A DNA stretch of 64,000 nt from an uncultured virus (IMG/VR IMGVR_UViG_3300009509_000003) (IMGVR_UViG_3300009509_000003), one strand, 5' to 3'; shown: positions 22,772 to 52,467, counted from the first letter of the stretch. The notes: generated by a model from the sequence alone, not told the origin. A program made the numbers and translations.

Positions 22772-22905
22772 GGGCTGAATGCTTAGTGGGAATACATCGC
22801 ATTCCAAGCGCGTGGTTGTTGGTTCAAGTCCAGCTCTCCCTGTATGGGGAGATAGCTCAACTGGTAGAGCACGTAAACGTCTTCTCACGCCCTTCTTGTC
22901 AGCCC
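22772..22905 (+). ncRNA. Y RNA-like 11 (complete circularly permuted cloverleaf)
   Basis: GGGCTGA-ATGC...CTTG-TCAGCCC; anticodon-like loop, T-arm, TCTCCC/GGGAGA acceptor, D-arm GCTCAACTGGTAGAGC. Confidence 0.85.
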
Positions 22906-22908
22906 TCT

Positions 22909-22932
22909 GGCCCGGTAGCCAAATGGTAAGCG
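22909..22932 (+). pseudogene. 5' fragment of a tRNA-Cys-like gene upstream of an HNH gene
   Basis: GGCCCGGTAGCCAAATGGTAAG resembles GGCCCAGTCGCCAAGTGGCAAAG at 23464. Confidence 0.55.
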
Positions 22933-22978
22933 CCTTCGGGAGCTTGCCGCTTGGCTATCAGCGCTGTACCCTGGGAAG

Positions 22979-23509: not shown

Positions 23510-23536
23510 TCGCGGGTTCGAGTCCCGCCTGGGTCT
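23464..23536 (+). tRNA. tRNA-Cys(GCA)
   Basis: tcggc ctGCAaa gccga; U73; overlaps the HNH stop. Confidence 0.9.
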
Positions 23537-23592
23537 CCGAAGCGGGCGCGTCGTTTCGCGCGATAGAATCTGATAACGAGGTCCGCTTCTCC

Positions 23593-23664
23593 GCCCCCAT
23601 CGTTCAATGGATAGGACATCGGCCTTCTAAGCCGAGTATCGAGGTTCGAGTCCTCGTGGGGGCG
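23593..23664 (+). tRNA. tRNA-Arg(TCT)
   Basis: tcggc ctTCTaa gccga. Confidence 0.9.
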
Positions 23665-23667
23665 CTT

Positions 23668-23742
23668 CTCCCCGTCGTTCAATGGATAGGACCTTGGTCT
23701 TCGGAACCAATGATAGGCGTTCGAGTCGTCTCGGGGAGGCCA
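23668..23742 (+). tRNA. tRNA-Arg(TCG)
   Basis: ttggt ctTCGga accaa; CCA. Confidence 0.9.
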
Positions 23743-23783
23743 TGAGCGACAAACTCTCTTGTTGCTCATACGTGAGTGACAAC

Positions 23784-23855
23784 GCGCTCGTCGTCCAAAG
23801 GAAAGGGCACGGCCCTGCGGAGGCCGGAATCAGGGTTCGAGTCCCTGCGAGCGCT
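23784..23855 (+). tRNA. tRNA-Arg(GCG)
   Basis: cggcc ctGCGga ggccg. Confidence 0.85.
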
Positions 23856-23856
23856 T

Positions 23857-23929
23857 TGCGGGGTAGAGCAGTGGTAGCTCACTTGGCTCATAACCAAGAA
23901 GTCGAGGCGTTCAAATCCCTCCCCCGCTT
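23857..23929 (+). tRNA. tRNA-Met(CAT), initiator-like
   Basis: cttgg ctCATaa ccaag; 1:72 mismatch and fMet-like 5' end. Confidence 0.75.
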
Positions 23930-23930
23930 C

Positions 23931-23999
23931 GGCAGCGACCTATGGAAGGACCGCGCCCTCATAAGGCGTCGGGCGAGGTTTCGAGCACCTCCGTTGCCA
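23931..23999 (+). tRNA. tRNA-Met(CAT)
   Basis: cgcc ctCATaa ggcg; short D-arm. Confidence 0.7.
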
Positions 24000-24055
24000 C
24001 CTGGCCAAGACGCCTCTTCGGTAAGAGTCAGAAGGATCGTCTGACCGCCACCTCA

Positions 24056-24133
24056 CGGGCACAGGGCTTGATGGTAAGCCGCCGCGTTCGGGACGCGGAG
24101 TTTGTCGGGGTTCGACTCCCCGGTGCCCGACCA
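24056..24133 (+). tRNA. tRNA-Pro(CGG)
   Basis: ccgcg ttCGGga cgcgg; CCA. Confidence 0.9.
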
Positions 24134-24251
24134 ACGCTATAGCGGGGATTGCCACCTCCGGGGTGTTTACTCTGCGGTGCAGGCTGTGAGGACCTATTCT
24201 GCGGTGCTAGCGCGGCACAATCGTGGTCTAGGAAAGTCAGCCCGATCCTAT

Positions 24252-24322
24252 GGGATATTCGTCCAACGGAAGGGCCTCGGTCTTACACGCCGATGATGGG
24301 GGTTCGATTCCCTCATATCCCA
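24252..24322 (+). tRNA. tRNA-Val(TAC)
   Basis: tcggt ctTACac gccga. Confidence 0.9.
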
Positions 24323-24323
24323 C

Positions 24324-24460
24324 TGCCACTGTACGCTAATCGGGGCCCTTCAGTGGGCCTGGCCGCCATATCGGATCGGTGCGGCGTCCCCGACACCCGG
24401 TACGGAGGAAAAACGAGCCCCCTGAAGGGAAGATTATGGGTTAGAACCCCATCAGTGGCA
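24324..24460 (+). ncRNA. tRNA-like RNA with a large insert replacing the anticodon loop
   Basis: TGCCACTG/CAGTGGCA acceptor, CCTTCAG/CTGAAGG stem, ATGGG-TTAGAAC-CCCAT T-like arm. Confidence 0.5.
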
Positions 24461-24464
24461 CGAT

Positions 24465-24538
24465 GCCAGCGTACCCCAATCGGAAGAGGGAGCCGGCTTA
24501 GACCCGGTACAGTGTCGGTTCGAGTCCGACCGTTGGCA
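24465..24538 (+). tRNA. tRNA-Leu(TAG), short variable loop
   Basis: gccgg ctTAGac ccggt. Confidence 0.85.
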
Positions 24539-24543
24539 CTCAA

Positions 24544-24618
24544 GGCGCAGTGGGCAAATTGGTAAAGTCGTCCGGCCCAGGACCGGAAGTTTTGAGGGTT
24601 CGAGTCCCTCCTGCGCTA
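24544..24618 (+). tRNA. tRNA-Leu(CAG), short variable loop
   Basis: tccgg ccCAGga ccgga. Confidence 0.8.
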
Positions 24619-24620
24619 TT

Positions 24621-24696
24621 GGCAACGTAGCCCAATCAAGGCAGAGGCGTGTGGTCGAGGGCCACGAGGTTAGGGGTTCGAGTCCCCTCGTTGCCA
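24621..24696 (+). tRNA. tRNA-Leu(GAG), short variable loop
   Basis: tgtgg tcGAGgg ccacg. Confidence 0.8.
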
Positions 24697-24700
24697 CCGT

Positions 24701-24772
24701 GCCCGTCTAGCCCAACGCAGAGGCAATCGGCCTAAACCCGATCCAGTGCGGGTTCAAATCCCGCGACGGGTA
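24701..24772 (+). tRNA. tRNA-Leu(TAA), short variable loop
   Basis: atcgg ccTAAac ccgat. Confidence 0.8.
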
Positions 24773-24777
24773 TTTGA

Positions 24778-24850
24778 GCCACCGTAGGCCAATGGAAGAG
24801 TCACCTGGTTCAAACCCAGGGTGTTGTCGGTTCGAGTCCGACCGGTGGTA
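24778..24850 (+). tRNA. tRNA-Leu(CAA), short variable loop
   Basis: cctgg ttCAAac ccagg. Confidence 0.85.
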
Positions 24851-24884
24851 TTGTGTTTCAATGGAAGTATGATAAATTCGAGGC

Positions 24885-25490
24885 ATGAGTAAAAAAATCG
24901 AACTTGTATGCCCTGTCTGCGGAAGTGTTTTCGCGAGATATCCTTCCCAGCTAAATACCATTGGAAAGATCCGGGTGTGCAGCCGAAAATGCAGAAATGT
25001 TCTTGGAAGAGAAGCGCGTAGAGAGAGCTATGCGAGATCGTTCGAGGATCGGTTCTGGAAAAGAGTGAAAAAGTCTTCTGGATGTTGGGAGTGGCAGGGA
25101 AGCACGACCAGCGCAGGGTATGGCAGTGTAGCTCACGGTGGACGGGACTACCAAACTCATCGTGTGGCTTACGAGCTGCACTTCAACACTAAAATTCCAG
25201 ATAATCTGTATGTATTACACGAGTGCGATAACAGACGGTGCGTGCGCCCCGATCACCTACGAGTCGGAACCCACATCGATAACATGGCGGATATGCGATC
25301 TAAAGGACGATCCTCGAAAAATCGTGGCGAGCGAAACGCTAACGCGCGGCTCAGCGACATTGAGGTTGAGCAGATACGAGATCTGTACGAATCGGGCGAT
25401 TACACTCAAACAGAGCTTGCCGAGAAATTTGGTGTCGGTCAGACCCATATCAGTAGGCTCGTAAACAGGAGGATGCGATGCGAACCCTAG
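24885..25490 (+). CDS. HNH endonuclease with C-terminal HTH
   Basis: CWEWQG..HRVAYEL..VLHECDNRRCVRPDHL..NMADM; TQTELAEKFGV. Confidence 0.9.
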   Translation: MSKKIELVCPVCGSVFARYPSQLNTIGKIRVCSRKCRNVLGREARRESYARSFEDRFWKRVKKSSGCWEWQGSTTSAGYGSVAHGGRDYQTHRVAYELHFNTKIPDNLYVLHECDNRRCVRPDHLRVGTHIDNMADMRSKGRSSKNRGERNANARLSDIEVEQIRDLYESGDYTQTELAEKFGVGQTHISRLVNRRMRCEP

Positions 25491-26035
25491 TCTTAGACAT
25501 GGGGTATCAGCCCCATCGCATTGTGACCTGGCAGCGAGCCATCACAATGCTTTTCCAGAATAAATGCGAGATCATCGAGGAGTACGACGAGCCTCTGATG
25601 ACAGCCGATCAGGTCGAAAGGGCCAAGGCCTCTGGCTGGACGATCATCTTCGAGAAGATGCCCGCCGTAGTCAGGTTGCTGACCAAGGTCCAGCGCAAGA
25701 AGGCGGTTCGGTTCTCTCGGATGAATGTTCTTACCCGAGACAACTGGACCTGCCAGTACTGCGGCGTGAAGCTGACGACGCGAAAGCTGAACTACGACCA
25801 CGTAGTTCCCCGGTCGATGGGCGGCAAGACGGTGTGGGAGAACATCGTCACCTCTTGCTACGCCTGCAACGACAAGAAACGCGACCGGACGCCACAGCAA
25901 GCAGGGATGCGACTTCGGAAGCAACCCTACAAGCCGAACTCGCTTCCGGTGGTAGCTTTCCACCTCGAACCAGGGGACTCGTTGCCGGACGTGTGGCGCA
26001 GTTTTCTGTACTGGAACACCGAATTAGAAGAATAA
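25478..26035 (+). CDS. HNH endonuclease (McrA/HNH_5-like)
   Basis: RDNWTCQYCG..DHVVPRSMGG..WENIVTSCYACNDKK. Confidence 0.9.
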   Translation: MRTLVLDMGYQPHRIVTWQRAITMLFQNKCEIIEEYDEPLMTADQVERAKASGWTIIFEKMPAVVRLLTKVQRKKAVRFSRMNVLTRDNWTCQYCGVKLTTRKLNYDHVVPRSMGGKTVWENIVTSCYACNDKKRDRTPQQAGMRLRKQPYKPNSLPVVAFHLEPGDSLPDVWRSFLYWNTELEE

Positions 26036-26072
26036 GGTTCCCTTTCAAGAACTTCCTAGCTATACTGGATTT

Positions 26073-26735
26073 ATGAACCTCGTCGGTGAGAAATTCGGAA
26101 GCTGGGAAGTTCTTGAGAAAGGGCCCTCTGATAAATATTGGAACAGACGCTGGTTATGCCGGTGTCGGTGCGGGAAGCAGCAGCATGTTCTTCAAAATTC
26201 CTTAGTGTATGGTCATTCGCTAAGTTGCTGCTCGTGCGCAAACAAAAAGACGGCGAAAGAGCGCGGAAAAGCGAATACCACTCACGGGCGATCCTCTGAG
26301 CAAGTCTACAAGGTGTGGACGCAAATGATTCAACGGTGCACCAACCCGAACGACACTGCCTACCCGGAGTATGGTGGGCGCGGAATAACAGTCCATGAAG
26401 ACTGGATCGGTCGTGGAGGATTCGAGCGGTTCATCGAGCACATTGGAAAACGCCCTTCTGATCAGCACACAGTTGATCGCATCGACAACAACGGTAACTA
26501 TGAGCCCGGAAACGTTAGGTGGGCGACATCCTCTGAGCAGGCTCGAAACACACGGAGGAGCCGAGTGATAGAGTTTGACGGAGAGCGACTCACACTAGCA
26601 GAGTGGGCAGAGAGAACTGGCATGAAGCGAGAAACTATTGCGCGTCGGCTCAACTTAGCGTGGTCATCGGAAAGGGCTCTCACCGAACCCGTACACCGAT
26701 CCATCTACTGGCACGGTGAGCTAGAGCATGATTGA
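26073..26735 (+). CDS. Phage HNH-type endonuclease
   Basis: MIQRCTNP..YGGRGITV..DRIDNNGNYEPGNVRWAT; paralog of 55188-55844. Confidence 0.85.
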   Translation: MNLVGEKFGSWEVLEKGPSDKYWNRRWLCRCRCGKQQHVLQNSLVYGHSLSCCSCANKKTAKERGKANTTHGRSSEQVYKVWTQMIQRCTNPNDTAYPEYGGRGITVHEDWIGRGGFERFIEHIGKRPSDQHTVDRIDNNGNYEPGNVRWATSSEQARNTRRSRVIEFDGERLTLAEWAERTGMKRETIARRLNLAWSSERALTEPVHRSIYWHGELEHD

Positions 26736-26898
26736 TTCCGCTCACTATCGCTGCTGCAAATGCGGCCACGAGTGGGAGCAGCCGCCGGCTCAGGTTACTT
26801 GCCCCAAATGCAGCCACGAATACGTCAAGTGGGTCAACTACGAGGCGTGGCGTGAGCGCAATCCGCTAGAAGAGGAGGTCCCCATGGTGACCAAATGA
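26728..26898 (+). CDS. Small zinc-ribbon protein
   Basis: Hand translation YRCCKCGHEW..TCPKCSH; overlaps the upstream gene end. Confidence 0.6.
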   Translation: MIDSAHYRCCKCGHEWEQPPAQVTCPKCSHEYVKWVNYEAWRERNPLEEEVPMVTK

Positions 26899-26910
26899 AA
26901 GGAGGTCTTC

Positions 26911-27117
26911 GTGGGAAAGCCTCAGAAGTGGAAGCGCGGTCGTCCAAAATCTGGTCGAGCCGGGTGCCTCATGTGAAAGCCTCACAAGCGTCAAGGCGTT
27001 GACGCTCCGAAGCAAGCCGAAAAGGCGGCCCGGATCGATGAGAAGGAACAGCTCGAAGACCTGCCCTCAGACGCTCACGGGCGACTGAAGAGGGCAGATC
27101 CTAGACGCTGGACATGA
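26911..27117 (+). CDS. Small basic protein with in-frame TGA (candidate CxxU selenoprotein)
   Basis: AAGGAGGT RBS; GCLM-TGA-KPHK followed by a perfect 8-bp hairpin. Confidence 0.5.
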
Positions 27118-27196
27118 AAGCTCCCCCGGAAGCCTCGGCGACCGGGTGCTCCCCCTCCCGGGGAAGCGTTTTCGCGGGGGTAGCTCCCCCGCACTT

Positions 27197-27273
27197 CGGG
27201 CGGAGGGCTTGATGGTAAGCCGCCTGACTGGGGGTCAGGAGTTGTGCGGGTTCGACTCCCGCTCGCCCGACCA
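27197..27273 (+). tRNA. tRNA-Pro(GGG)
   Basis: cctga ctGGGgg tcagg; CCA. Confidence 0.9.
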
Positions 27274-27354
27274 GCGGATAGTGGTGAACCGACGGTGGTC
27301 CGTCGGCCACTAAAGTGAAGGCGCGCAGGGTTTGATTCCCCACTGCTATCCGCG
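27274..27354 (+). ncRNA. tRNA-like RNA with extended acceptor and D stems, no proper anticodon arm
   Basis: GCGGATAGTGG/CTGCTATCCGC; CCGACGG-TGGT-CCGTCGG; GGG-TTTGATT-CCC. Confidence 0.45.
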
Positions 27355-27356
27355 AT

Positions 27357-27437
27357 GGAGAGAGAACTCGGTGGGACCGGGACCTGGTTTGAAACCAGAG
27401 GGAGCGAAAGCTTGGGGATCGTGCCCTCCTCTCTCCG
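27357..27437 (+). tRNA. tRNA-Ser(TGA), 8/4 fold
   Basis: GGAGAGAG/CTCTCTCC 8-bp acceptor, 4-bp T-stem, variable arm, G73. Confidence 0.8.
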
Positions 27438-27455
27438 CCGTGTTATAGAGCACAC

Positions 27456-27598
27456 GAGTATCCGATCGAGGTGCCGGGACTGAGCAATGACATGGCGTCT
27501 GAGCGTTCATGGCAGTGCCATGTGTAGGTTGCCGGTGGGAGAGTGGGTGGCGAAAGCCGTATCCTAGGCACGCGGCGAGTAGGGTAGATCGGATACTC
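27456..27598 (+). ncRNA. Unclassified structured RNA
   Basis: 12-bp closing stem GAGTATCCGATC/GATCGGATACTC. Confidence 0.5.
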
Positions 27599-27601
27599 AC
27601 T

Positions 27602-27682
27602 GGAAGGTGAACTGGTCAGGGACCAGGCTCGGTTGGAAGCCGATGCGCTCGCAAGGGTGGTGTTCGAGTCGCCCGCCTTCCG
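27602..27682 (+). tRNA. tRNA-Ser(GGA), 8/4 fold
   Basis: tcgg ttGGAag ccga; 8-bp acceptor. Confidence 0.8.
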
Positions 27683-27690
27683 CGAAGTTT

Positions 27691-27779
27691 GGCAGAGGAA
27701 CCGTACAGGGGTACGGGCTCGCCTCGAAAGCGATGCGCTCGGTGATGAGCTGGGTGGGGATCATGCCCTCCCTCTGCCG
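27691..27779 (+). tRNA. tRNA-Ser(CGA), 8/4 fold
   Basis: tcgc ctCGAaa gcga; GGCAGAGG/CCTCTGCC. Confidence 0.8.
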
Positions 27780-27923
27780 CCGAAGGAGAGTCAACACGAT
27801 CCGGAGTGGTGAGGAAACTGGGTAATCGGGGAGATGGCCACCTCGTACATCCCGCTCGGCCCATACCGGCGATGAGACATAAAGGGTTGACTCAGGAGCG
27901 GGTGACGAGGGAACCGCTCCAAT

Positions 27924-28011
27924 GGCGAGTGAACCAGACAGGGGTCTGGGCCTGCCTGCTAAGCAGTGCGCTCGGGGCAACCTGGGTGTGGATCAAGACC
28001 ACCGCTCGCCG
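27924..28011 (+). tRNA. tRNA-Ser(GCT), 8/4 fold
   Basis: ctgc ctGCTaa gcag; 8-bp acceptor, GTGG/CCAC T-stem. Confidence 0.8.
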
Positions 28012-28027
28012 CCGAAAGGAGATTGCT

Positions 28028-28252
28028 ATGAAACCGACGTGGAAGCACGACTGCGATGCTTGCGAGTTCCTCGGAATGTTCGATAAGCACGATCTGTATT
28101 ACTGCAGCTCGACTATGCTGCCTACGATCATCGCTAGGTTCGGTTCCGACGGACCTGAATACAAGAGTGGCATGGCGTTCAAGGACGCCGACAAGCACCT
28201 TCGAGAAGCCTATAGACGCGCAGCAGCAAAAGGCCTAGTCAACGCAGCGTAG
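28028..28252 (+). CDS. Small hypothetical protein
   Basis: AAAGGAG RBS; HDCDAC..DLYYC. Confidence 0.65.
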   Translation: MKPTWKHDCDACEFLGMFDKHDLYYCSSTMLPTIIARFGSDGPEYKSGMAFKDADKHLREAYRRAAAKGLVNAA

Positions 28253-28346
28253 TCTCGGCCCCATCTTCTAGAGTCCTATCTCTACGCGTATATGGAAAAG
28301 ACGGTGTATGGAAAGTTCGCGGTCTCACAGAGGAGGCTCATAAAAT

Positions 28347-28418
28347 GGCGCTGTCGTCTATCGGTAGGACACCTCGCTCTCACCGAGGAAAGGGAGGGTT
28401 CGATTCCCCTCAGCGTCA
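28347..28418 (+). tRNA. tRNA-Glu(CTC)
   Basis: cctcg ctCTCac cgagg. Confidence 0.88.
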
Positions 28419-28499
28419 CTGACTCGTGATGGCGGGTTCAAGTCCCCCTGGGGTCATTGGGGTAGCACCACAAACAAAGATGCTCAGTTGTCGCAGTTT

Positions 28500-28575
28500 G
28501 CCCCCGAGGTCCCAATGGAGGGACGCCTGTTTCGTAATCAGGAAGTGGCCGGTTCGATCCCGGCCGGGGGCTCCA
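28500..28575 (+). tRNA. tRNA-Thr(CGT)
   Basis: cctgt ttCGTaa tcagg; CCA. Confidence 0.85.
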
Positions 28576-28775
28576 TGGCTCGATCGAGGAAGAACTACGC
28601 TTCGATGAAGGGAGGGGATCTTCCAAAGGTTCGCTACCCGCTGATCACGTTCGACATGGAACGGGGAAAAGTGGGGTGGGCTCATTGGCGCCGCTCGAAG
28701 AAGAGAGCCACGTCTCGCTATGAGCGACATGTAGTGGCGAAACAGATCGTGCGGGAGCAGTTGGATGAACTGTGA
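28575..28775 (+). CDS. Small basic hypothetical protein
   Basis: ATG overlaps the tRNA CCA end; coupled to the next ORF. Confidence 0.45.
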   Translation: MARSRKNYASMKGGDLPKVRYPLITFDMERGKVGWAHWRRSKKRATSRYERHVVAKQIVREQLDEL

Positions 28776-29034
28776 GACTTGCGACGTTCTTCGAGACTTC
28801 CCCAACGACCCTCCTTGCTGGAAGGGGATGACGTGGGATGTGTACTGGGACGAAGAGAGCTACAGCTCAACGACGATCGGCCACAGCGACGATCGACCGT
28901 CCGTGATAGAAGAGAGCGCGGTCCTGCTCGGCACCTTCGAGGCTGAGTGCTGGGCCGACATGAAGGTGAAATCGGAGGAATTTGTAGACAAGGTTCGCCT
29001 GCGAAGCGTAAATGGTGACGCGCCGGTTTTGTAA
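28765..29034 (+). CDS. Hypothetical protein
   Basis: 89 aa; 3' end overlaps tRNA-Thr. Confidence 0.5.
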   Translation: MNCETCDVLRDFPNDPPCWKGMTWDVYWDEESYSSTTIGHSDDRPSVIEESAVLLGTFEAECWADMKVKSEEFVDKVRLRSVNGDAPVL

Positions 29035-29068
29035 TCCGGAGAACTCGGTTCGATTCCGAGCGTGGGCT
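28997..29068 (+). tRNA. tRNA-Thr(TGT)
   Basis: ccggt ttTGTaa tccgg. Confidence 0.85.
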
Positions 29069-29071
29069 TAT

Positions 29072-29144
29072 GGCTCCGTCATCTAAAGGTTAGGAGATCG
29101 GCCTTTCAAGCCGATGATGCTGGGTTCGAGTCCCGCCGGAGTCA
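29072..29144 (+). tRNA. tRNA-Glu(TTC)
   Basis: tcggc ctTTCaa gccga. Confidence 0.88.
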
Positions 29145-39854: not shown

Positions 39855-40631
39855 TCACTTGTCCGCGCATTCTATGTCAGAGTAGACGACGCCGTCACAC
39901 ACCATCCCCGACGGAACCCAACCCGCGCCTTTGACGAAAGCTTCGGCGGCTTCCCTGGAGTAGGGGGATTCGCCCGACTTCTGCTTCCAAAGATCGCCGA
40001 CGGTACAGAGATGCTCGATCAGCTCTTCGGCCGTCGCAAACACTGGGGTGATCGGCGACCCCTCGGAGACGGTCTCCCAGACCTGCCAGCCCTCGCCCTT
40101 CGGAGGTTCGATATTCTCCCAGTCCTCGTGCGCCTGTTTGATTTCAGGGGAAGCCCACAGGACGCCCTCGCCCCCGCATATGGAGCACTCCACTTGGATG
40201 CCCCGCTTCTCCGCGCGATGCCGGCAGACGGTCCAGCAGTTACACGAGTCGTGGAGCAGCACATTGCGCTTCGCTACCTCGTTCACTTCGGCCGCGGTGG
40301 GGTAGTACTTGGAGCCGTCCTCGTTCAGCTTGGCAACCCACCCGTGCTCCGAGTCGTAGGTGTGGGTGATATCGCGCAGACGGTTTTTGTCCACGAGGAG
40401 ATTGACCTCTTCCTGGGTGAGTTCGTATTGACTGCCGACGTAGCGTCCGAGAGAATAGCCTTTCGCGTCGAACCCGTACCAGTCCCTCTCGAGGGCTCGG
40501 TACTCGGGCGTATAGCCTCGCCCATCGCAGGAGTCACACTTCACCCCGCGATAGGGGTTCACGTAGCCTGCCCACGTTTGGTCCAGCGGCCAGTTGAAAT
40601 CGAGCGGCACCCTCTTTATCTCTCGTCCCAT
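39855..40631 (-). CDS. Hypothetical phage protein with DnaJ-like CxxCxGxG motifs
   Basis: CDSCDGRG, CSICGGEG, WETVSEGSPITPVF. Confidence 0.7.
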   Translation of the reverse strand: MGREIKRVPLDFNWPLDQTWAGYVNPYRGVKCDSCDGRGYTPEYRALERDWYGFDAKGYSLGRYVGSQYELTQEEVNLLVDKNRLRDITHTYDSEHGWVAKLNEDGSKYYPTAAEVNEVAKRNVLLHDSCNCWTVCRHRAEKRGIQVECSICGGEGVLWASPEIKQAHEDWENIEPPKGEGWQVWETVSEGSPITPVFATAEELIEHLCTVGDLWKQKSGESPYSREAAEAFVKGAGWVPSGMVCDGVVYSDIECADK

Positions 40632-41428
40632 TAGTGTTCTCCCCGATCGAGCCCGCTTCTCAGGTTCCATCTCTTGGCAGCCATTTTCCTCGACTCCCCT
40701 TCTGGTCCAGTGGCGGAGCAGCTCGAACACTCGGCCCACCAGTTATTCCCATTGTCGAAGAAGCTGCTACACAGATGGACATCCACATCCCCACAGAAGG
40801 GGCAGGCTCGGAGCTTTCCCTTCGAGCGGATCGCCTCCAGCTCTTCCTCGGCCTTGCGAAGCTCGGAGCTGAGCCATTGGTTGTGCTTTAGCTGCTCTTG
40901 AAGGGCTCGTTCCAGCTCATATTTCGGAGCGTTCGGAACCTCGATCTTCTCGGCGGCGTTGATGTTCCCGACGGCGATGCCCGGACCCTCCACAAATTCG
41001 GTGATGGGTCCTACATCGAGGGGCGGACCCTTCTTCTCTTCCCGCTCCCGCTTGTTCCAAGGCTTGAAGTTCAGGAGGGTCCGCACGCTGGGAAACATGC
41101 CCTCGAAGAGGAAGCACCGATCATCGATCGTGAGATAGGCCGCCGGTTTCTGCGTCGGGAACCGGAGATTGTTGAGCACCCTCTCGGGCAGACCCTGTTT
41201 GGTGAACCACTTCTTCATGGCCTCTATCCCTATGTCGTGTCGGGACCGGCTCGAATAGATGCACAGCTCGAACGATGGTCTACCGTTCTCCTCCCTGTGC
41301 CCATCCAGCTCGATGAGCCATCCGAAGGCGTGGGGAACGGGGGGATCGGGTATCGTCATCGCGTCCACCCAGGGGCTCGTATAGGAATGAATTACTCCGT
41401 CAAAGTCGATACACAACGTCCGGGTCAT
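40631..41428 (-). CDS. HAD-family phosphatase fused to a Lar-like zinc ribbon
   Basis: IDFDGVIH..KP..IDDR; CPFCG..CSSC..KRWN. Confidence 0.75.
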   Translation of the reverse strand: MTRTLCIDFDGVIHSYTSPWVDAMTIPDPPVPHAFGWLIELDGHREENGRPSFELCIYSSRSRHDIGIEAMKKWFTKQGLPERVLNNLRFPTQKPAAYLTIDDRCFLFEGMFPSVRTLLNFKPWNKREREEKKGPPLDVGPITEFVEGPGIAVGNINAAEKIEVPNAPKYELERALQEQLKHNQWLSSELRKAEEELEAIRSKGKLRACPFCGDVDVHLCSSFFDNGNNWWAECSSCSATGPEGESRKMAAKRWNLRSGLDRGEH

Positions 41429-41451
41429 CGCCACCTCCGTCATTCGAGGCG

Positions 41452-41481
41452 TACCATATAGCGAACGCCTCGTCAAGGGCA
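41452..41481 (-). promoter_or_regulatory. Repeated phage promoter
   Basis: TGCCCTTGAC-N10-CTATATGGTA. Confidence 0.6.
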
Positions 41482-41491
41482 AACATTTATG

Positions 41492-42544
41492 CTACAGGTC
41501 GATGATCGACTTCTTCGTCTTGGCCGGAGCTTGAACTGTGGAGCCCGTTCCGCTCTGCGCCACCGTCATCGATTTCTTGATCGACCGGATGTTGATGTCG
41601 GCGAAAGCAGTGTCCTTCTGGCGCGCGATGAAGTCGGCCATGAACGTGTCGCCCTGTCCGACGGAGTTCGCGACGAGAAGCAGCGCGGTGTCGACGATCC
41701 GCTCTTTGAACTCGATCGGTATGACTCGCTCCGCGCCCACAAGGGCTTGCCACATCTCCTTGAACTTCGGCCGGTCCTGGTAGTTCATCAGACCAGAGCC
41801 CTCGCAGAAGATGCAGTAAACTTCGGCGCGGTCCCGGAGCATCTTGATCGCGGACTCCGTGTCCGTGGGATACTCACCCGTGTTCGGGAAGTAACGATCG
41901 ACCTCGTGCACCTCGGTCTTCATATAGGGCCGCTCGTCGGTCGCGACCATGACCCAGACGTTGGTCGCCTTGGACGTGTCGACCATGCGCAAGACGTGCT
42001 GCAGGACGAGCTGAGACGATTCGATGCCGTTGCCCGCCCCGCCTTGCGCTTCCAAGGCCCCGAGGTAGTCGGCCAGCACGCTGTCAGAGCCGAAGTCCGG
42101 CGCCACCATCAGAGGGGCGGGGTCGCCCATGGGACCGTCGCCGAAACCGAGGATCAGAATCTCGATGTCGTCGGTCCCTGTGTACTTCTTCATCAGCTCG
42201 ATCATGCCTTCGCCGCGGCTGATGACTTCGTGAGGCCAGTCCGCCATCGAACCAGTCATGTCGAGACCGAAGATGAGCACGTTCTTCGCCTTCGAGACGA
42301 GTTTTCGCCCCGGGCTCAGGTCCACGTTGTGCCGGCTCACACGTCGCGCGCGAGGGGCCTGCATGCTCTGATTGCGGTCCTGGTTTCCCCGTCCTCGGTT
42401 CGGATCGCCGCTCGTGACGCCGGACCACGGCTGAGACGGCCCATTGTAGGCGTCTCGAGACGAGTCGTATGCACTCGATCTGTCGTTGGAGTCGTCCGAA
42501 TACCCCTTGTCGCGGGCACCGGACCATCCGCCCATTCCACTCAT
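41492..42544 (-). CDS. VWA-domain protein
   Basis: GLDMTGSM, GGAGNGIES, ATDE. Confidence 0.75.
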   Translation of the reverse strand: MSGMGGWSGARDKGYSDDSNDRSSAYDSSRDAYNGPSQPWSGVTSGDPNRGRGNQDRNQSMQAPRARRVSRHNVDLSPGRKLVSKAKNVLIFGLDMTGSMADWPHEVISRGEGMIELMKKYTGTDDIEILILGFGDGPMGDPAPLMVAPDFGSDSVLADYLGALEAQGGAGNGIESSQLVLQHVLRMVDTSKATNVWVMVATDERPYMKTEVHEVDRYFPNTGEYPTDTESAIKMLRDRAEVYCIFCEGSGLMNYQDRPKFKEMWQALVGAERVIPIEFKERIVDTALLLVANSVGQGDTFMADFIARQKDTAFADINIRSIKKSMTVAQSGTGSTVQAPAKTKKSIIDL

Positions 42545-43398
42545 TGCTTTCGTCCTTTCTTCAGGAAGCCGTCCACGTCGTCCGGTGTCCTGACAATCGT
42601 TCCTTCTCGTAACTTCAATATCTCTCGGCTCTCACCGCGCCCCAGTTGGTCTCGTCGGAACTCGGCGATCTGTCTCTGCACTTCGTGTGCGCTTCCCGGT
42701 CGCGCCGTCGGGTCACGGCGAATCATGGCTTCTATAATCTCGGCCAGGCGGGGGTGCATATCCTTCGGCGGGATGCCGCTGTCGAGGCAGGGGTCTCCGC
42801 CGGCCAAGTAGAGAGCGCTCTTCCCGAGTGAATAGATGTCGGACTCGGGGATCGGCGGCCTCCCATTGGCAAACTCCGGCGGGATGTAGACGGGCGTCCC
42901 TCCCTTCGCGCGCATCTGACTCCCAGTTCCCCGAACGGCCATGCCGAAGTCGACCAACACGATGTTGTGCTCGGCGAGCTGGATCATCATGTTCTCGGGT
43001 TTGATGTCGCCGTGAACTACTGTGTGGTAGTGCATATAGGCGAACGCCTTCAGGCAGACCTGCAGCATCCAGCAAATGTGCTCGTCGTCGATGAACCCGT
43101 AGCGTTCGACGAAGGTCTGCAGGTTCATGCCGTCGATGAAGTTCATGGCGATGAACTGGTAGGTCTCTCCGTCAATCCTCTCCTCGAAGTAGTCTTTGAC
43201 GGGTACGATGGACTCGTGGTGAAGGTCCCAGAGGATCATCGCCTCCTGTTTGAAGAGTTTTACCGCGTCAGGGTGTCCCGTCGCCTCCTGCTTCAGGCAC
43301 ACCTTCTTCCCCGTCGGAATGTGCTCCGCCAGCATCGTCATTCCAAAAGCCCCTTCCCCGAGCTTCTTCATGAGTCGGTACGCTCCAACGGTTTTCAT
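42541..43398 (-). CDS. Hanks-type Ser/Thr protein kinase
   Basis: LGEGAFG, HGDIKPEN, DFG, GTPVYIPPE, SDIYSLG. Confidence 0.92.
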   Translation of the reverse strand: MKTVGAYRLMKKLGEGAFGMTMLAEHIPTGKKVCLKQEATGHPDAVKLFKQEAMILWDLHHESIVPVKDYFEERIDGETYQFIAMNFIDGMNLQTFVERYGFIDDEHICWMLQVCLKAFAYMHYHTVVHGDIKPENMMIQLAEHNIVLVDFGMAVRGTGSQMRAKGGTPVYIPPEFANGRPPIPESDIYSLGKSALYLAGGDPCLDSGIPPKDMHPRLAEIIEAMIRRDPTARPGSAHEVQRQIAEFRRDQLGRGESREILKLREGTIVRTPDDVDGFLKKGRKQ

Positions 43399-44371
43399 GT
43401 TTCCTCCGATGATCCAGTACGTCTTTCCAGAGCAGGGCGTTGCCGTCAGAATATCGGGCCTCCGCCCATCTTCCGGAGTGTGAATCGATCAGCTCGGACT
43501 CGAGGTCGTGGGTGCCGGGCATGAAGATCACGTTCCAATTCGCCAAGGGGCCTACGATATCGAGTTTGTTGTCCACGAGGTAGATGAACTTGGCATCCGT
43601 CTTCTTGAGGAACTGCCGACGATGCCGATCCATATATGGCTTCGCCAGTCGCATCATTTCTTTCCGGTCGCCTTTGTCGACGATTTTGCGGTGGAGCTTT
43701 CTCGTGCCCGAGAGGTTCGCGCTGAGCGCTTCTATCATCTCGTCAGCGACGAAGTAGGCGGCCGACTTCACCTGCGACGCGGCGAAGTGCTTGGCATATT
43801 TGGTCTTGCCTGATTCGTGCGCCCCCACCACTGCTACGCGATACTGCCCGAGGATGATCTCCTCCATCGCGGCTTTGGTGCCGGAATACACGTACCCGGA
43901 TACATCCATTCCTTCGGCGACGAGGTTCTTGATCATGGTCGACGAGACATGCGCAGTTTCTGGGCGCGCTTCTATGGTCCAGAGGCTGGTCCAGGTTGGA
44001 AGCAGGGGTCGAAGCTCCCGCGTGAAGGCGTCTATTTCTCGTTCCTCCTCCTCCTCGGTTCGGAAGCCACGAATGATGCTATCGACGCCGAAGTCGAGCG
44101 CGATATTGACCAGGGAGTGTGTGCTCGTGATGACTTCGACATCCTTCAGATACCCCGCCTCGCGGATCATGTAGTTTGCGTGTGCCCCAGCCTCTCGAAG
44201 CGGGAAGAGGTAATGCCCCTGCTTCGCCGGGTTACCGCACACGCATACGAGGACCTTATCCACGTGCGCGAGGCTCTTGACTACTACGTCGAGGTGGCCG
44301 ACGTGAAATGGATCGAAAGACCCTGCGTAGAGACCGACTGTCGGATTATCTTCTTTCATGACGTTTCCCAA
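43268..44371 (-). CDS. CoaD-like nucleotidyltransferase fused to a degenerate P-loop (CoaE-like) domain
   Basis: YAGSFDPFHVGH, IIRGFR, VSSTMIK; GAHESGKT. Confidence 0.75.
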   Translation of the reverse strand: MGNVMKEDNPTVGLYAGSFDPFHVGHLDVVVKSLAHVDKVLVCVCGNPAKQGHYLFPLREAGAHANYMIREAGYLKDVEVITSTHSLVNIALDFGVDSIIRGFRTEEEEEREIDAFTRELRPLLPTWTSLWTIEARPETAHVSSTMIKNLVAEGMDVSGYVYSGTKAAMEEIILGQYRVAVVGAHESGKTKYAKHFAASQVKSAAYFVADEMIEALSANLSGTRKLHRKIVDKGDRKEMMRLAKPYMDRHRRQFLKKTDAKFIYLVDNKLDIVGPLANWNVIFMPGTHDLESELIDSHSGRWAEARYSDGNALLWKDVLDHRRKHENRWSVPTHEEARGRGFWNDDAGGAHSDGEEGVPEAGGDGTP

Positions 44372-44981: not shown

Positions 44982-45482
44982 TCACATATAGTAGGTGACG
45001 ACTCCGAACAGAGGCTCGATCGAGAGAACTCCACGACGCTTGCTCAACGCCATGATCCAGCCGCTGTATCGCTTCTTCATCTCTGCGATCATCTTCTCGG
45101 GAAGCAGGGGATCGCTCAGATTGTAATAAATGCCCTCCCAGTCTCCGTCTCCGGCTCGATGCCGCTCCTCTACCCAGGGACGTATGTCATTCGGAATTGC
45201 TATGATCTCCCCGTCTGCTTTCATCGCCGAAAAGAAGCTTTCATCCAGCGCGGGTTCTTCCGTCATACCGCTCGTCAAGTCGTCGAGGCTGGGATAGTAG
45301 TCTCTTTGGGTTTGGGTGCTTTCGATCTCGGAACCGCAGTGAGGGCAGTGTTTGAAATACGGGGACACGTAGTCCGTGCACCTGCGAGGGCACGCCGCTT
45401 TCGTCTCCTCCCGCGATTCCTTCGCGACCTCGATTCTCAGGTACGGTCCGACGTGGGTGTATCTGCTCGATCCCATGGACAC
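44982..45482 (-). CDS. Zinc-ribbon hypothetical protein
   Basis: GGAGG RBS; promoter upstream. Confidence 0.6.
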   Translation of the reverse strand: MSMGSSRYTHVGPYLRIEVAKESREETKAACPRRCTDYVSPYFKHCPHCGSEIESTQTQRDYYPSLDDLTSGMTEEPALDESFFSAMKADGEIIAIPNDIRPWVEERHRAGDGDWEGIYYNLSDPLLPEKMIAEMKKRYSGWIMALSKRRGVLSIEPLFGVVTYYM

Positions 45483-45498
45483 CTCCGATTCCCAGCCT

Positions 45499-45528
45499 TA
45501 CCACATAGTCTGTGATGTGTCAATGGCA
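45499..45528 (-). promoter_or_regulatory. Repeated phage promoter
   Basis: TGCCATTGAC-N10-CTATGTGGTA. Confidence 0.65.
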
Positions 45529-45564
45529 AAGGTGGGAGGCGGGTGGAGGGGATGAAACCACCCC

Positions 45565-46329
45565 GCTCCAATCCCTGCCATACCCTGCCTTTCCAGTCCT
45601 GAGCAATCTCGTCCCACCATGCCTCGACTCGCCTAACCGATCCTGCCAGCCCTTTCCATTCCGTTACCCTCCGAGCCTCTCCATCCTTGCCTGACCAGTC
45701 CTGCCAATCCGTTGCGTGCCGCTGCGAGCCGACCCTGTACACGCCAGGCGTCTCCATAGCACGCCGCGCCTAGCGCTGCCGATCCTGCTAGTCCCCGCCT
45801 TGCCTCCCACACCTCTCCGACCCAGACGTTGCCCCGCCTTTCCGATCCTGCCATTCCTGCCCAATCCGTGCCTCTCCAATCCAGACGTTGCCCCGCCTTT
45901 CCTGCCGAACCATCCCCCGCCTGTCCCCGCGTAACCTTGGCGAGCCTGACCGTGCCAGTCCTGCCAAGCATTGCCGGTCCATTCCTCGATCGTCCCCGCC
46001 ATGCTTGGCCTCGCCGCGCCTATCCTGCCAAGCCGTTCCTAACCCATCCACTCCTCACACGGCCTTGCCATTCCTGCCACTCCAGTCCTCTCCGCTCCAG
46101 CCCACGCCGGCCCAAACCAGTCTGCTCCGCGCCTCGCCGTGCCTTTCCCCTCCTGCCATTCCGAAGCTTTCCCCGACGATCCCCGCCGTACTCCGCCGTG
46201 CCGTGCCACTCCTGCCATTCCCGGCCAGGCCTAGCCTGTACTCGCCGTCCCAATCCTTGCCATTCCTGCCATTCCTCTCCCCGTCCAGTCTCGGCCAATG
46301 CACGCCGCGCCCCCCGTGCCGGTCCTGCC
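45565..46329 (-). repeat. Array of 12 GGCA-(GGN-NN)n pentamer-periodic units (putative guide-RNA array)
   Basis: GCAGGA delimiters spaced 59,54,59,79,49,64,59,54,63,84,58 nt; 5-nt GG periodicity within units. Confidence 0.85.
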
Positions 46330-46333
46330 ATGT

Positions 46334-46852
46334 CTAATTCTGGGGCAAACTCTGGATAGCGGTCTTTGCGGACTGAACTGATACACTCAGACCCGAAAGC
46401 ACGTTTCGGACAGTGGACGACTTCGATCCCTTCGCCGCTCTGAGCAGACGTTGTATCGATTCCTCCAGAGCCTCGAGTTTCGATAGCAGCTCTCCGAGAG
46501 CCAACTGATATTCCGAGCGCACATGGACCAGTCTCTTGACGAACTCATAGCGCCCTTCGTCTTTGGTTCCGCTGGGCACGTGGTAGAACTGCAGGGGTTC
46601 TTGGGTCTTCGGTTCGATGAACACCACGTCACGAATGAGTGTCCTGGCTTGCATCAGCCGGTGCTCATGGGCCGCCAGCTTATCGTTCCAGTTGAACTCA
46701 TGGTGACACGGCGCCGTCGGACTCTTCGACTCCTCGACGAGCATAGAGGCCGTAAACTCTCCGTTCGCTTGCCTGATACGCTCGAACTCGGTCGCGGCGT
46801 CTTCGGCCGAGACCTTGTGGCCCCGGGCTCCCGGTCTATATGTCCACGTCAT
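46334..46852 (-). CDS. Accessory protein between the Cas7-like gene and the array
   Basis: 172 aa; HHEFNWND..AHEHRLMQARTLIR and a C-terminal coiled coil. Confidence 0.75.
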   Translation of the reverse strand: MTWTYRPGARGHKVSAEDAATEFERIRQANGEFTASMLVEESKSPTAPCHHEFNWNDKLAAHEHRLMQARTLIRDVVFIEPKTQEPLQFYHVPSGTKDEGRYEFVKRLVHVRSEYQLALGELLSKLEALEESIQRLLRAAKGSKSSTVRNVLSGLSVSVQSAKTAIQSLPQN

Positions 46853-46863: not shown

Positions 46864-47586
46864 CTACGCGGCTTTGATGCGGTCCGCTGTCTTCACGATC
46901 TCGAAGGTTCCCCAGCCCATGCCAGTAGATGACTTGGAGTCGTGCCGACCTTCACCGATGCCGACCTGGAGACCCACGCGCATGAGGAGGTTGTAGACGT
47001 CCTCGGGGGTGAACATGTCGCGGTCATAGGTGACGCGAACCACAGCCTCCCATCCGGGATCAAACATCGGGCGCCTGCGAACATCGACTACGCCAGTCGC
47101 GTTGCGCACGATGGCGTCGAAGGGATGAGGTGTTCCCTTCGTGATCCTGATCAGTGGTGCCCCATCGGTCCCGTAGCCGTCAGCTTCGACGAAGAGAGCA
47201 ATCTTCGCCTTGGTCATGTGGAAGCCCACGGTTTTGCATGCCGAGACCAGCGCATTTCGGAAGGACGACGCCGGCATACCGTGCCAGCCTGCCGTCGAGA
47301 CGTGCATCGCGTCTTTGTAGAGAGCGTCGAAGTCCTTCGGCTCTCGGTTCTTCCCCTTCTTCTTCGTGCTCCCAGCTTCCTGCTCTCTGATCATCTGCTC
47401 CAATCCCTTGGGCCCGAAGCGATGCTGCACGTAGGGAGCGGTTCCTCGAATGACCACTGCGACCATCTCCATCTTCGGAGCTGGAATTGTGAGCGTCACT
47501 CCCTTCGCCGTTTTCGAGGCCGCGGCCATCGCCTTTTCGACTGAGGGGTCCTTCGCGGTCAACGGAGCTTTCTTCTTACCTGCCAT
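46864..47586 (-). CDS. Cas7/RAMP-like RNA-binding protein
   Basis: IRGTAPYVQH, GMPASSFRNALV, C-terminal G-rich loop GIGEGR..GMGWGTFEI. Confidence 0.75.
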   Translation of the reverse strand: MAGKKKAPLTAKDPSVEKAMAAASKTAKGVTLTIPAPKMEMVAVVIRGTAPYVQHRFGPKGLEQMIREQEAGSTKKKGKNREPKDFDALYKDAMHVSTAGWHGMPASSFRNALVSACKTVGFHMTKAKIALFVEADGYGTDGAPLIRITKGTPHPFDAIVRNATGVVDVRRRPMFDPGWEAVVRVTYDRDMFTPEDVYNLLMRVGLQVGIGEGRHDSKSSTGMGWGTFEIVKTADRIKAA

Positions 47587-48694: not shown

Positions 48695-49933
48695 TCAGTC
48701 CTCCCGATGTCTCCCACGGGCGACATTCCTCTCCGCCCATGCCGCTCTCAGACGCGCACGCGCGATCTCGGCTGATTCTTGCTCCACTTCAATGCCGATG
48801 AAAAATCGACCTTCCATTATGCAGGCCACCCCGGTCGACCCGCTTCCGCAGAACGGATCGAGCACTACGCCGCCGGTCGGTGTCGAGGTCAGTCGGACGA
48901 GCCAGCGCATCAAACTCAGGGGCTTCACCGTCGGATGAGGATTCTCGACGGTGTTGTTCGCGGTGCGTTCTCGACGGGACGCCTTGGCGCAGTAAAAAAA
49001 TCGCGACGCTCCTCCCCTGTCTTTGTACATGGGGGCATTTGGCTGCTTTGTTCCCTTGTCGTGATTCACATCGCCAAAACCGCTCGGACGCCGACCCTCG
49101 CCTGCTCCGCGCATTCCTCCCGATTGAAGCGACCCGCTCTGCTCATCGAGGAGTTTCCCAGTTACTTCGTCCAGCACGACGTTTGCTGGCCACCTTCCTT
49201 TGGCCAACGAGCGGTCGATGCTCGTGGTCTTGTTAGCGTGTTGGTTCCATCCTGACCCCTGCCCCAAAGCCGTGCTGCCGGAAATGCTCCCTCCTTTGGA
49301 AGGGCCTCCCATGATTCGAGCCCCGTCGATGTTCAGGCCAGCTACTCCATGCTTCAGGGCGTTCTCGGCGAAGGTCCCGTCAAGAGGCTTCATCGCCAAC
49401 ACGATCGGCTCTACCGCGGGCTTGAGCGCGGTGCCCCATCCCTCCCACTGCTTGGCTTCATCGGTAGCTGATGCTGTCAGAACAGTCACCGCTTCTCGGT
49501 CGTGTTGCTTGTGCCCTCCAATCAACCGTCCCCCTGTCATGTTCACGGTTCTTCCAATGGTGTTAGGATTGGGCCCGACAACCTTGCGCTCGGCCCCGGC
49601 TGCTTTGTCGATAGCCTTCGAGATGTCGAGTGACTTGGGGAAGCCCTGCCCGTAGAGCCACATGAGGCAATCTCTCAACTCGAACCCCGCGTCTTCGATC
49701 GCGCACATCAGCCGATGGTGCGTTTTGGTTCCTCCGAAGGCCAACAGCGACCCGCCCGGCTTCAGTACCCGCAGCACTTCTCGCCAATAAGGTTCGCCGG
49801 GAACGCCGTGGTCCCACCCCTTCCCCATGAAGCTCAGTCCATAGGGAGGGTCGGTCACGCACGTATCCACAGAACCTTCTTCCATCCTCGAAAGCAGCTC
49901 GCCCGCGTCGCCCGTCTCTATTCTCCAGACCAT
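48695..49933 (-). CDS. DNA N6-adenine/N4-cytosine methyltransferase (beta class)
   Basis: VTDPPYG, HPTVKP, LDPFCGSGSTG. Confidence 0.92.
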   Translation of the reverse strand: MVWRIETGDAGELLSRMEEGSVDTCVTDPPYGLSFMGKGWDHGVPGEPYWREVLRVLKPGGSLLAFGGTKTHHRLMCAIEDAGFELRDCLMWLYGQGFPKSLDISKAIDKAAGAERKVVGPNPNTIGRTVNMTGGRLIGGHKQHDREAVTVLTASATDEAKQWEGWGTALKPAVEPIVLAMKPLDGTFAENALKHGVAGLNIDGARIMGGPSKGGSISGSTALGQGSGWNQHANKTTSIDRSLAKGRWPANVVLDEVTGKLLDEQSGSLQSGGMRGAGEGRRPSGFGDVNHDKGTKQPNAPMYKDRGGASRFFYCAKASRRERTANNTVENPHPTVKPLSLMRWLVRLTSTPTGGVVLDPFCGSGSTGVACIMEGRFFIGIEVEQESAEIARARLRAAWAERNVARGRHRED

Positions 49934-51326: not shown

Positions 51327-51978
51327 TCCGCTACCTCCTTGGTATAGAACTGTACTTCATTTCTAACACTCGTGGCAAGGAGCAGCTCGGGGAAAACTCC
51401 CTATAGACCCAGGGGCTCGATCAAAGGCAAAACCGAAACGCTCTCGAGGCGTTGCGCTGCAACCCGGCCTCCAAATAGACCAAAATCAAAGCCCCTCCCA
51501 GCAGCCCACTAATCCCGATCTATAAGGCTATTCATTGACAGATCGAAACAGCACCCCTGGCATGGGCCTAGAACGGCGCTGAAAACTCCATTGTACGTGG
51601 GGCACACCAAAAGGGGGATTTGCCGTTACTCATAATGGCCGCTCTTTAGGGGGCCTTTTGAGGGAGTTTGATCGCTCTAAGTGATGGAAAACTCCCGGGA
51701 AAGCGGGAAAAACGGGTGCGACCATTCGGTCGCTGTAGAGGGTTCTCGTGAGGATGTTGGAAGGTAAGGCCTGGATGTTGGAAGAAGCGGGTTTAGTGAT
51801 GGACGTAGATCATAGAGAGTGTGTTCTGGATGAGTGTCAGGGGTTGAGAGACGGTTCTCTGTACCTTAGTTGACTTTTGACCTAGGGGGCTAGGGCTTTG
51901 GATCTTCTGAAGAGCGACCATTCGGTCGTAGGGTATCGGGCGCTTTGAGGGCGTCGACGAGAAGGCTGATTGCTGACG
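51327..51978. other. Long non-coding region (candidate origin or genome terminus)
   Basis: No ORFs, purine/pyrimidine-skewed halves, inverted copies of repeated motifs. Confidence 0.45.
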
Positions 51979-52467
51979 CTAGGCGGGGGCTTGTAGGAGT
52001 TTTCTGATGAGGCTCGATGCCTGGGCTATGGGCACGGGACGGCTCTTGGGGACCGGGTAGGGGTCCGGCTTGGGGAAGGCCCAGCGATCTTTGATGGCTT
52101 GCTCCGCTGCTTTGATGCGGCCGAGAACATCGTCAGGAACCCGCTCTGAGGGGTCTAGAAGCGTCTCTTCGTCTTCCAGGGGGTCGATACGGCCTACGGG
52201 CTCTAGTGAGCCTGAGAGAGCGTCCTCGATGAAACAGAGCACCTGTGGGCGAGGGGCGTACCACGTGCCCCGTAGATGCCATGGGCCGAGCGTGTCGTAC
52301 CACCACTTGAGAGGGTAAAGCCTCGAGTCCACCTTGCCCATGAAGGCTAGCTCGTTGGGATTGCCCGCCTGAGCTAGAGCAAGTAGGTGAGAGGGAACAG
52401 GATCTTCGGCGATCAGAATGGGGCTGGTGTTGTCTCCCTTCACCCGTATGAAGCAGACGAAGCTCAT
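51979..52467 (-). CDS. T5orf172/GIY-YIG-like protein
   Basis: LALAQAGNPNEL..HLRGTWY. Confidence 0.45.
   Translation of the reverse strand: MSFVCFIRVKGDNTSPILIAEDPVPSHLLALAQAGNPNELAFMGKVDSRLYPLKWWYDTLGPWHLRGTWYAPRPQVLCFIEDALSGSLEPVGRIDPLEDEETLLDPSERVPDDVLGRIKAAEQAIKDRWAFPKPDPYPVPKSRPVPIAQASSLIRKLLQAPA

Follow-up and report, generated by a model that had tools for sequence, protein, structure and literature searches.

Two guides of a phage VIPR array fit motif I of druE-like and brxHI defence helicase genes

VIPR systems combine a stand-alone RAMP homolog, Vipr, and an accessory gene, vap, with guide RNAs (vrRNAs) built of 9–16 YNNGG repeats (10.64898/2026.04.26.720920). According to that preprint, the two N bases of each repeat form base pairs with double-stranded DNA and one base of the target is passed over at each repeat, a 1-nt skip rule that has been established experimentally; the skipped bases fall overwhelmingly at codon wobble positions, either DNA strand can be targeted and the outcome is silencing of transcription. 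The same text describes repeat variants such as NNNGG, staggered arrays in which successive vrRNAs overlap by 1 nt (legend of fig. S18) and guides that converge on one element, and reports that no self-targeting was found. Seven types (I–VII) have been published, and the skip rule was demonstrated for type II systems. The structural preprint shows one Vipr protomer per repeat, the GGY bases being buried and the NN bases exposed, and a gapped R-loop triplex on the target (10.64898/2026.04.26.720927), and a further preprint describes a guide of phage SUSP1 that covers catalytic-core codons of a satellite recombinase, from which escape would need damaging changes (10.64898/2026.10.15.759431). Here, we describe a locus of this kind in a 64,000-nt stretch of DNA (hereafter the window) from the uncultured virus IMGVR_UViG_3300009509_000003 (IMG/VR), in which a pentamer array lies beside a RAMP-fold gene and two of the array's guides fit motif I of druE-like and brxHI genes. 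We consider it probable that the function of this phage array is RNA-guided repression of these defence genes.

The vipr gene (46864..47586, minus strand) encodes a 240-residue RAMP-fold protein without a Pfam family, as is true of all its 1379 homologs in a large protein collection (0 with a Pfam family). A Foldseek search of its AlphaFold (AF2) model (predicted local distance difference test, pLDDT, 83.7) against the PDB gave 73 matches at E ≤ 1e-3, led by 8wfx_I (2e-6). Nearly all of the top rows were backbone subunits of CRISPR effectors, either type III (Csm/Cmr) or type VII, and one row was Cas7-11; we take these backbone subunits to be Cas7-type RAMPs. The C-terminal loop of Vipr is glycine-rich and conserved, with invariant G209, G213, R214, D216, G222, G224 and G226 and a near-invariant W225. 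Vipr is predicted to coat the guide RNA with one protomer per pentamer. Compared with the Class 1 CRISPR-Cas backbones (Cas7/Csm3/Cmr4), the fold, the ratio of one protomer per guide repeat and the periodic interruption of pairing by a thumb are alike, whereas CRISPR repeats, spacers and other cas genes are missing from the locus: none of the neighbouring genes is a cas gene in PHROG and Pfam annotation, and no CRISPR repeats occur nearby. The two also differ in the spacing of the pairing break, which comes after every two bases in VIPR and every five in Class 1 CRISPR-Cas, VIPR hiding three guide bases for each skipped target base.

Between vipr and the array lies an accessory gene encoding a 172-residue protein (46334..46852, minus strand), our vap candidate, which has no Pfam family and matches phrog_15946, a family of unknown function. 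Its AF2 model (pLDDT 90.1) had no Foldseek match in the PDB at E ≤ 1e-3, only weak PadR/MarR-like winged-helix rows, and in the VIA wide search the alignment was limited to a C-terminal helical hairpin, which is a common arrangement; sequence searches of this protein and of Vipr against PDB chains returned nothing useful. The association of the three parts extends to the relatives of the locus. Among 80 related viral loci fetched from viral contigs, vipr is adjoined by a same-strand array with a GG period of 5 in 74, and a homolog of the vap candidate stands beside it on the same strand in 71 (phmmer, E < 1e-3). With a RAMP homolog outside a CRISPR context, a same-strand pentamer array, an accessory gene and, for two units, targets that follow the skip rule, the locus is, as judged from its sequence, a VIPR system of the published staggered form, whose array would be expressed and processed and whose vrRNAs would be bound by Vipr. 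It shares with that form (10.64898/2026.04.26.720920) the RAMP gene, the one accessory gene, the same-strand GG/NN pentamers, the 1-nt overlap, carriage by a phage and NN dinucleotides that read as NNx at codon positions 1–2. It differs in the third pentamer position, which is A or C here (112/150) and a pyrimidine there, and in its targets, which are defence helicase genes here and satellites, prophages, viruses or other VIPR loci in the published texts searched.

The array itself (45555..46331, minus strand) spans about 780 nt and, when parsed by phase, comprises about 14 units of GGxNN pentamers. In the 806-nt array stretch, GG co-occurs 91 times at a lag of 5, compared with 10–41 times at lags 1–4 and 6–8, and no other part of the window reaches this period-5 score. 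Most of the clean units end in GGCAG, the last G of which is also the first base of the next unit, giving a 1-nt overlap and a phase shift of −1. There are 14 GGCAGG junctions (46329, 46270, 46216, 46157, 46078, 46029, 45965, 45906, 45861, 45852, 45705, 45647, 45589 and 45579), of which two near the 3′ end of the array show no phase shift; some other shifts take place at degenerate junctions (GGGA/GG, AGCA/GG, GGAT/GG and GGTG/GG). We infer that the GGCAG/G junctions are the processing sites of the vrRNAs. G fills the first position in 122 of 150 pentamers and the second in 112; the third is mixed (A49/C63/G16/T22, hence a pyrimidine in 85/150, or 57%) and positions 4–5 are variable.

Two adjacent units carry the argument. 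Unit U3 (46158..46212, minus strand) has the NN string GT AC AC GG AC GG TC GG AA TC AT, which reads V-T-T-G-T-G-S-G-K-S(-I/M), a DruE-like motif I. Unit U4 (46079..46153, minus strand) has the string GG AA AC GA GC GC CT TT CC GT CT GC GA CT GT, which reads G-K-T-E-A-A-L-F-P-V-L-A-D/E-L-V, that is, motif I and the helix that follows it in an Lhr-like BrxHI. An earlier reading of this DNA from the sequence alone (the original prediction) had quoted the pentamers and NN strings of both units exactly as they stand on the minus strand at 46216–46079; its unit limits also took in the 4-nt GGCA of the preceding junction. That reading took the dinucleotides as a wobble-skipping NNx code, which is the 1-nt skip rule of the published VIPR text; as this code has been in print since April 2026, the deduction is an independent confirmation rather than a discovery.

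We searched for targets with gapped NNx patterns comprising the ten NN of U3 (20 fixed bases) and the first eleven NN of U4 (22 fixed bases). With 596 Gb of sequence in the genome_contigs collection, two strands and a uniform base composition, about 1 chance match is expected for the U3 pattern and about 0.07 for the U4 pattern. The U3 pattern gave at least 120 exact matches in genome_contigs and 1 in viral_contigs, compared with 3 matches in genome_contigs for an order-reversed control. Among the matches listed, 118 of 121 have their NN at codon positions 1–2 (frame 0 of the longest open reading frame, ORF), and all encode VTTGTGSGKS inside ...VVTTGTGSGKSLCFF... of very long ORFs. DruE was the best PADLOC model in each of the six U3-matched ORFs tested (E 2e-41 to 1e-88). 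Pfam detected DEAD in all five DruE-like ORFs examined and Helicase_C in four of them, L001 being the exception. No DUF1998 domain was detected in these five, most of which are cut at the C-terminus; the original prediction had named helicases of the MrfA/DUF1998 type. In one metagenome-assembled genome (MAG), G004, the DruE-like gene scores at 4e-126 against the PADLOC DruE model and carries the U3 motif at about codon 117, and its neighbours are DrmMI-like and DrmD-like genes rather than DruA–D or DruH. Because DUF1998 was not detected and the neighbours are of this kind, we name the U3 target only ‘DruE-like’.

The U4 pattern gave 72 exact matches in genome_contigs and none in viral_contigs. 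In 71 of the 72, the NN fall at codon positions 1–2 of the longest ORF, and every match encodes GKTEAAL(F/L)PVL inside ...APT(A/G)(G/S)GKTEAALFPVL.... Of seven matched ORFs tested with PADLOC, BrxHI was the best model in six and SngC in one (E down to 5e-300), and BrxHI shows the Pfam domains DEAD, Helicase_C and WH_Lhr (2.2e-8). The last four NN of U4 (A-D-L-V) lie beyond the conserved motif, in non-conserved codons, and are matched by one MAG among the 72 matches. All 15 NN, comprising 30 fixed bases, match this genome only (L157 in G001, a MAG labelled Thermoanaerobaculia), and 14 of 15 match L148, L162 and L174 in three MAGs labelled Holophagales (G002–G004). In G001, genes for PglX (E 0), PglZ (E 0), BrxD (7e-159) and BrxHI (1.5e-265, residues 1–698) follow one another in this order on one strand, with the U4 site beginning at about codon 50 of the 705 codons of the last. 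The target gene closes a BREX operon, the positions of PglW and PglY lying beyond the contig. We take this gene set to be that of BREX type 2, as reportedly described by Goldfarb et al. in 2015.

The claim that both units spell motif I of superfamily 2 (SF2) helicases was thus upheld by PADLOC in every ORF tested (DruE-like in 6/6, Lhr-like BrxHI or SngC in 7/7), as was the supposition that such matches exceed chance and lie in frame. As to the systems concerned, Druantia, to whose type the DruE-like target is related, was among those named in the original prediction; the Lhr-like target belongs to BREX or Shango, and not to DISARM or Dpd. The polarity of the NN strings is that of the messenger RNA (mRNA), as had been proposed, and the sense polarity of the guides excludes pairing with mRNA and leaves only the template DNA strand.

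Two loci bear on the setting of these genes. L282 of G004 (G004:C162, 1–11194) has the DruE-like helicase behind a DrmD-like SNF2 fragment, a 1329-residue DrmMI-like methyltransferase and a weakly pAgo/SIR2-like protein, and looks like a mixed DISARM/Druantia-like island rather than a textbook Druantia operon. L281 of G002 (G002:C104, 4351–12640) has a BrxHI-like gene between a PDC-M28C-like gene and a HEC-01A/AriA-like ATPase gene, with PglX and PglZ not nearby; here the Lhr-like helicase stands by itself, in a defence island of another make-up.

Both targets occur together in some genomes. G001 matches U4 with 0 mismatches and has no U3 match; G002 matches U3 with 2 mismatches and U4 with 1, G003 with 0 and 1, and G004 with 1 and 1, respectively, and backward-read controls for the two units found no match in these four genomes. 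Among 101 genomes of the order to which G003 belongs, U4 (≤3 mismatches) is found in 3, U3 (≤1 mismatch) in 5 and both in 2, an overlap with a hypergeometric P of about 0.006, a figure that the kinship of G003 and G004 may inflate. Acidobacteriota genomes of this one order, carrying both targets, are probably the host lineage of the phage, as suggested by the guide matches.

Our observations are of the make-up of the locus, the folds of its modelled proteins, the linkage of its parts in relatives, and exact target matches that lie in frame, with the genes around them. The following mechanism goes beyond these and takes the pairing rule and the silencing, by analogy, from the preprints on other VIPR systems. 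Transcription of the minus strand would yield an RNA that is cleaved at the GGCAG/G junctions to give the vrRNAs, and Vipr protomers would polymerise along each vrRNA, hiding GGx and exposing the NN dinucleotides. Of every three bases of the double-stranded target, these would pair with two, the wobble base being flipped out, and the resulting gapped R-loop would block transcription. The U3 and U4 guides would pair with the template strand early in the druE-like and brxHI genes and repress both, which would lower host defence and benefit the phage, whether its opponent is the immunity of the host or a mobile element bearing such a system. Since the wobble base is skipped and a change of the motif kills the enzyme, one guide would cover many alleles and leave no silent escape. 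That VIPR here acts as an RNA-guided anti-defence weapon, its Walker-A guides against brxHI and druE-like genes shutting down the immunity of the host, seems to us quite possible, if slightly short of probable.

Several observations weigh against repression of these defence genes as the function of the array. A target was identified for only 2 of the about 14 units. S6 had no match in the 101 genomes of G003's order (≤3 mismatches), in viral_contigs or in metagenome_contigs; S7 had none in viral_contigs, genome_contigs or G001–G004; S10b had none in G001–G004 and its last 11 NN none in genome_contigs; U2 and S8 had none in viral_contigs or G001–G004, where their backward controls gave 1–4 matches; and the one 2-mismatch match of S5 contains an in-frame stop and is at chance level. 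Within 1.09 Mb of fetched target loci, no unit besides U3 and U4 reached an 80% NN match. Nor do the arrays of the relatives (74/80 loci) share the targets, for 0 of their 2513 ten-pentamer windows match DruE/BrxHI loci at ≥9/10 NN, so the clade as a whole does not make a practice of targeting these helicases. The full 15-NN pattern of U4 has no match in metagenome_contigs, its perfect match being confined to one MAG. A third of the pentamers have A at position 3, where a pyrimidine is canonical, and the skip rule was demonstrated for type II systems and not for this clade. The benefit to a lytic phage is also not obvious, because silencing leaves existing defence proteins in the cell. Finally, 20 kb of the window gave no meaningful DNA match in G001–G004, so that the host assignment is drawn from the guide matches.

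These points leave room for other explanations, of which the strongest accepts the guides as genuine VIPR guides and places them in warfare between elements, directed at defence helicase genes of competing mobile elements (prophages, satellites or islands) in the same cells. In the published texts searched, the natural targets are all mobile elements or other VIPR systems; the sole viral_contigs match of U3 is a DruE-like gene on a contig classed as viral by IMG/VR; and the BrxHI-like gene of G002, without PglX or PglZ and beside PDC-M28C and HEC-01A/AriA-like genes, has an island-like setting. However, the perfect U4 match ends a complete-looking PglX–PglZ–BrxD–BrxHI operon, and no other guide matches within 4 kb of the target genes, whereas published guides converge on one element. 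We regard this explanation as unlikely, and it overlaps with repression of host defence, given that defence islands are themselves often mobile.

It is a good deal less likely that the guides have no function on these genes and instead regulate a helicase that shares motif I and is encoded by the phage or by a close rival, or are relics or decoys. Decoy and orphan vrRNAs are known (10.64898/2026.10.15.759431), and our scan for self-targets, which found none, took in the 64-kb window; the phage genome is more than twice as long, at 134.5 kb or above (longest contig 134,537 nt), a limit that also counts against repression of host genes. Yet U4 fits the four extra, non-conserved codons for A-D-L-V in the BrxHI gene of that single MAG, matches in the viral collection number 0 for U4 and 1 for U3, and the published systems are likewise without self-targeting. 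Least credible of all, in our estimation, is that the array is no guide array and the helicase reading a coincidence, the repeat being a G-rich structural or protein-binding element such as a run of two-tetrad G-quadruplexes or a sponge for an RNA-binding protein. A GG every 5 nt could form G-quadruplexes and any dinucleotide string can be translated; against this stand the excess of U3 matches over the reversed control, the more than 97% of listed matches that lie in frame, the exact match of U4 over 30 bases and the linkage of a RAMP-fold gene to such arrays in the relatives. The Vipr fold and the target matches led us to drop the idea of an array of G-quadruplexes and that of a protein sponge of the TRAP or CsrA type.

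Repression of the two defence genes, the reading we prefer, would set this locus apart in its targets. The kind of system, its staggered form, its code and the aiming of guides at catalytic-core codons are already in print. What is new is the class of target, as RNA-guided targeting of BREX and Druantia-type defence helicases is apparently undescribed: Druantia, BREX and anti-defense are absent from the full text of the four papers in which the term vrRNA is used, although the target tables (Data S3) could change this, and Druantia and BREX are absent from the accessible part of the supplement of 10.64898/2026.04.26.720920, where the term ‘anti-defense’ was not looked for. The nearest parallel is the type II VIPR of SUSP1, where the guide footprint also covers codons of a catalytic-core motif with the wobble base skipped, and escape needs a damaging change. 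The SUSP1 target is the excision recombinase of the phage's own parasite and the effect is proven by experiment; the targets here, as read from sequence matches, are Walker-A motifs of BREX and Druantia-type helicases, conserved in at least 120 species of many phyla. A second parallel lies outside VIPR. Vibrio phage ICP1, which Seed and colleagues are said to have described in 2013, reportedly carries a CRISPR-Cas system against the PLE island and cuts and destroys that island by means of contiguous spacers. Both are phage-borne RNA-guided systems directed at host-borne anti-phage elements; they differ in that the action predicted here is to bind conserved enzyme motifs in classical defence operons and silence them.

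If this reading is true, the array would be the first VIPR aimed at canonical host defence and U3 and U4 the first guides whose design follows a protein motif and not one given element, with a reach across alleles and species that, for one guide, extends to at least 120 species. If the guides work, phages would possess RNA-programmed silencing of host immunity, which would be a new class of anti-defence mechanism and extend what VIPR is known to do. The two would then also serve as ready-made natural guides for testing the reach of motif-directed guides.

Further features of the array deserve mention. It is closed by a hairpin (45526..45595, minus strand) in which the last G-rich pentamers pair with a C-rich stretch behind them; the RNA fold of 45600–45515 has −39 kcal/mol and a z of −2.3 (3 of 200 shuffles fold equally well or better), and the hairpin may serve as a 3′ cap or as a transcript terminator. 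The array sequence recurs without any difference in contigs of three runs from three other studies, over the parts covered (X16, 45398–46472; X18, 46062–46462; X20, 46155–46408). It had no match in an Rfam search of the window, and blastn of 45300–46600 against a phage collection found none either; a promoter and terminator scan detected no sigma-70 site and three terminator-like sites, all on the opposite strand. Units S9 and S8 (45848–45809 and 45902–45853, minus strand) have in common the NN run AA GG AA CT (K-G-K-L) with different flanks, as though each addressed its own variant of one motif; no target was found for them. Position 3 of the pentamer was considered as a reader of the skipped base and rejected, comparison of U4 with its perfect target by eye giving no consistent agreement. 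A weak period-5 GG signal at 51900–52100 (plus strand) was likewise ruled out as a second array, being the antisense of a proline-rich coding stretch that belongs to a 162-residue ORF (51979–52467, minus strand).

Directly behind the array, a stretch of about 35 nt (45496–45532, minus strand) contains TTGACA and, 17 nt later, TATGTG. It recurs with 4 differences on other contigs with unrelated flanks, in all four metagenome runs compared, and its 34-nt part 45496–45529 has no second copy within the window. This stretch may be a shared phage promoter for the downstream gene, which encodes a 166-residue protein.

The window as a whole is phage-like, its PHROG and Pfam matches including a DNA methyltransferase, a Ser/Thr kinase, a Lar-like protein and an HNH endonuclease, and its DNA is also found in sediment, estuary, mangrove and soil metagenome runs from 8 studies. 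The genes around the array are on the minus strand. A row of genes of the host-takeover type (40631–44371, minus strand) comprises a Lar-like restriction-alleviation domain fused to a phosphatase-like N-terminus (40631–41482), a Ser/Thr protein kinase (42541–43398) and a cytidylyltransferase/NMN-adenylyltransferase-like protein (43268–44371), all on the minus strand, and an N6/N4 DNA methyltransferase is encoded at 48695–49933. Elsewhere in the window, Rfam models detect 36 tRNA genes within about 13 kb (15910–29144, plus strand), an unusually large set even for a big phage.

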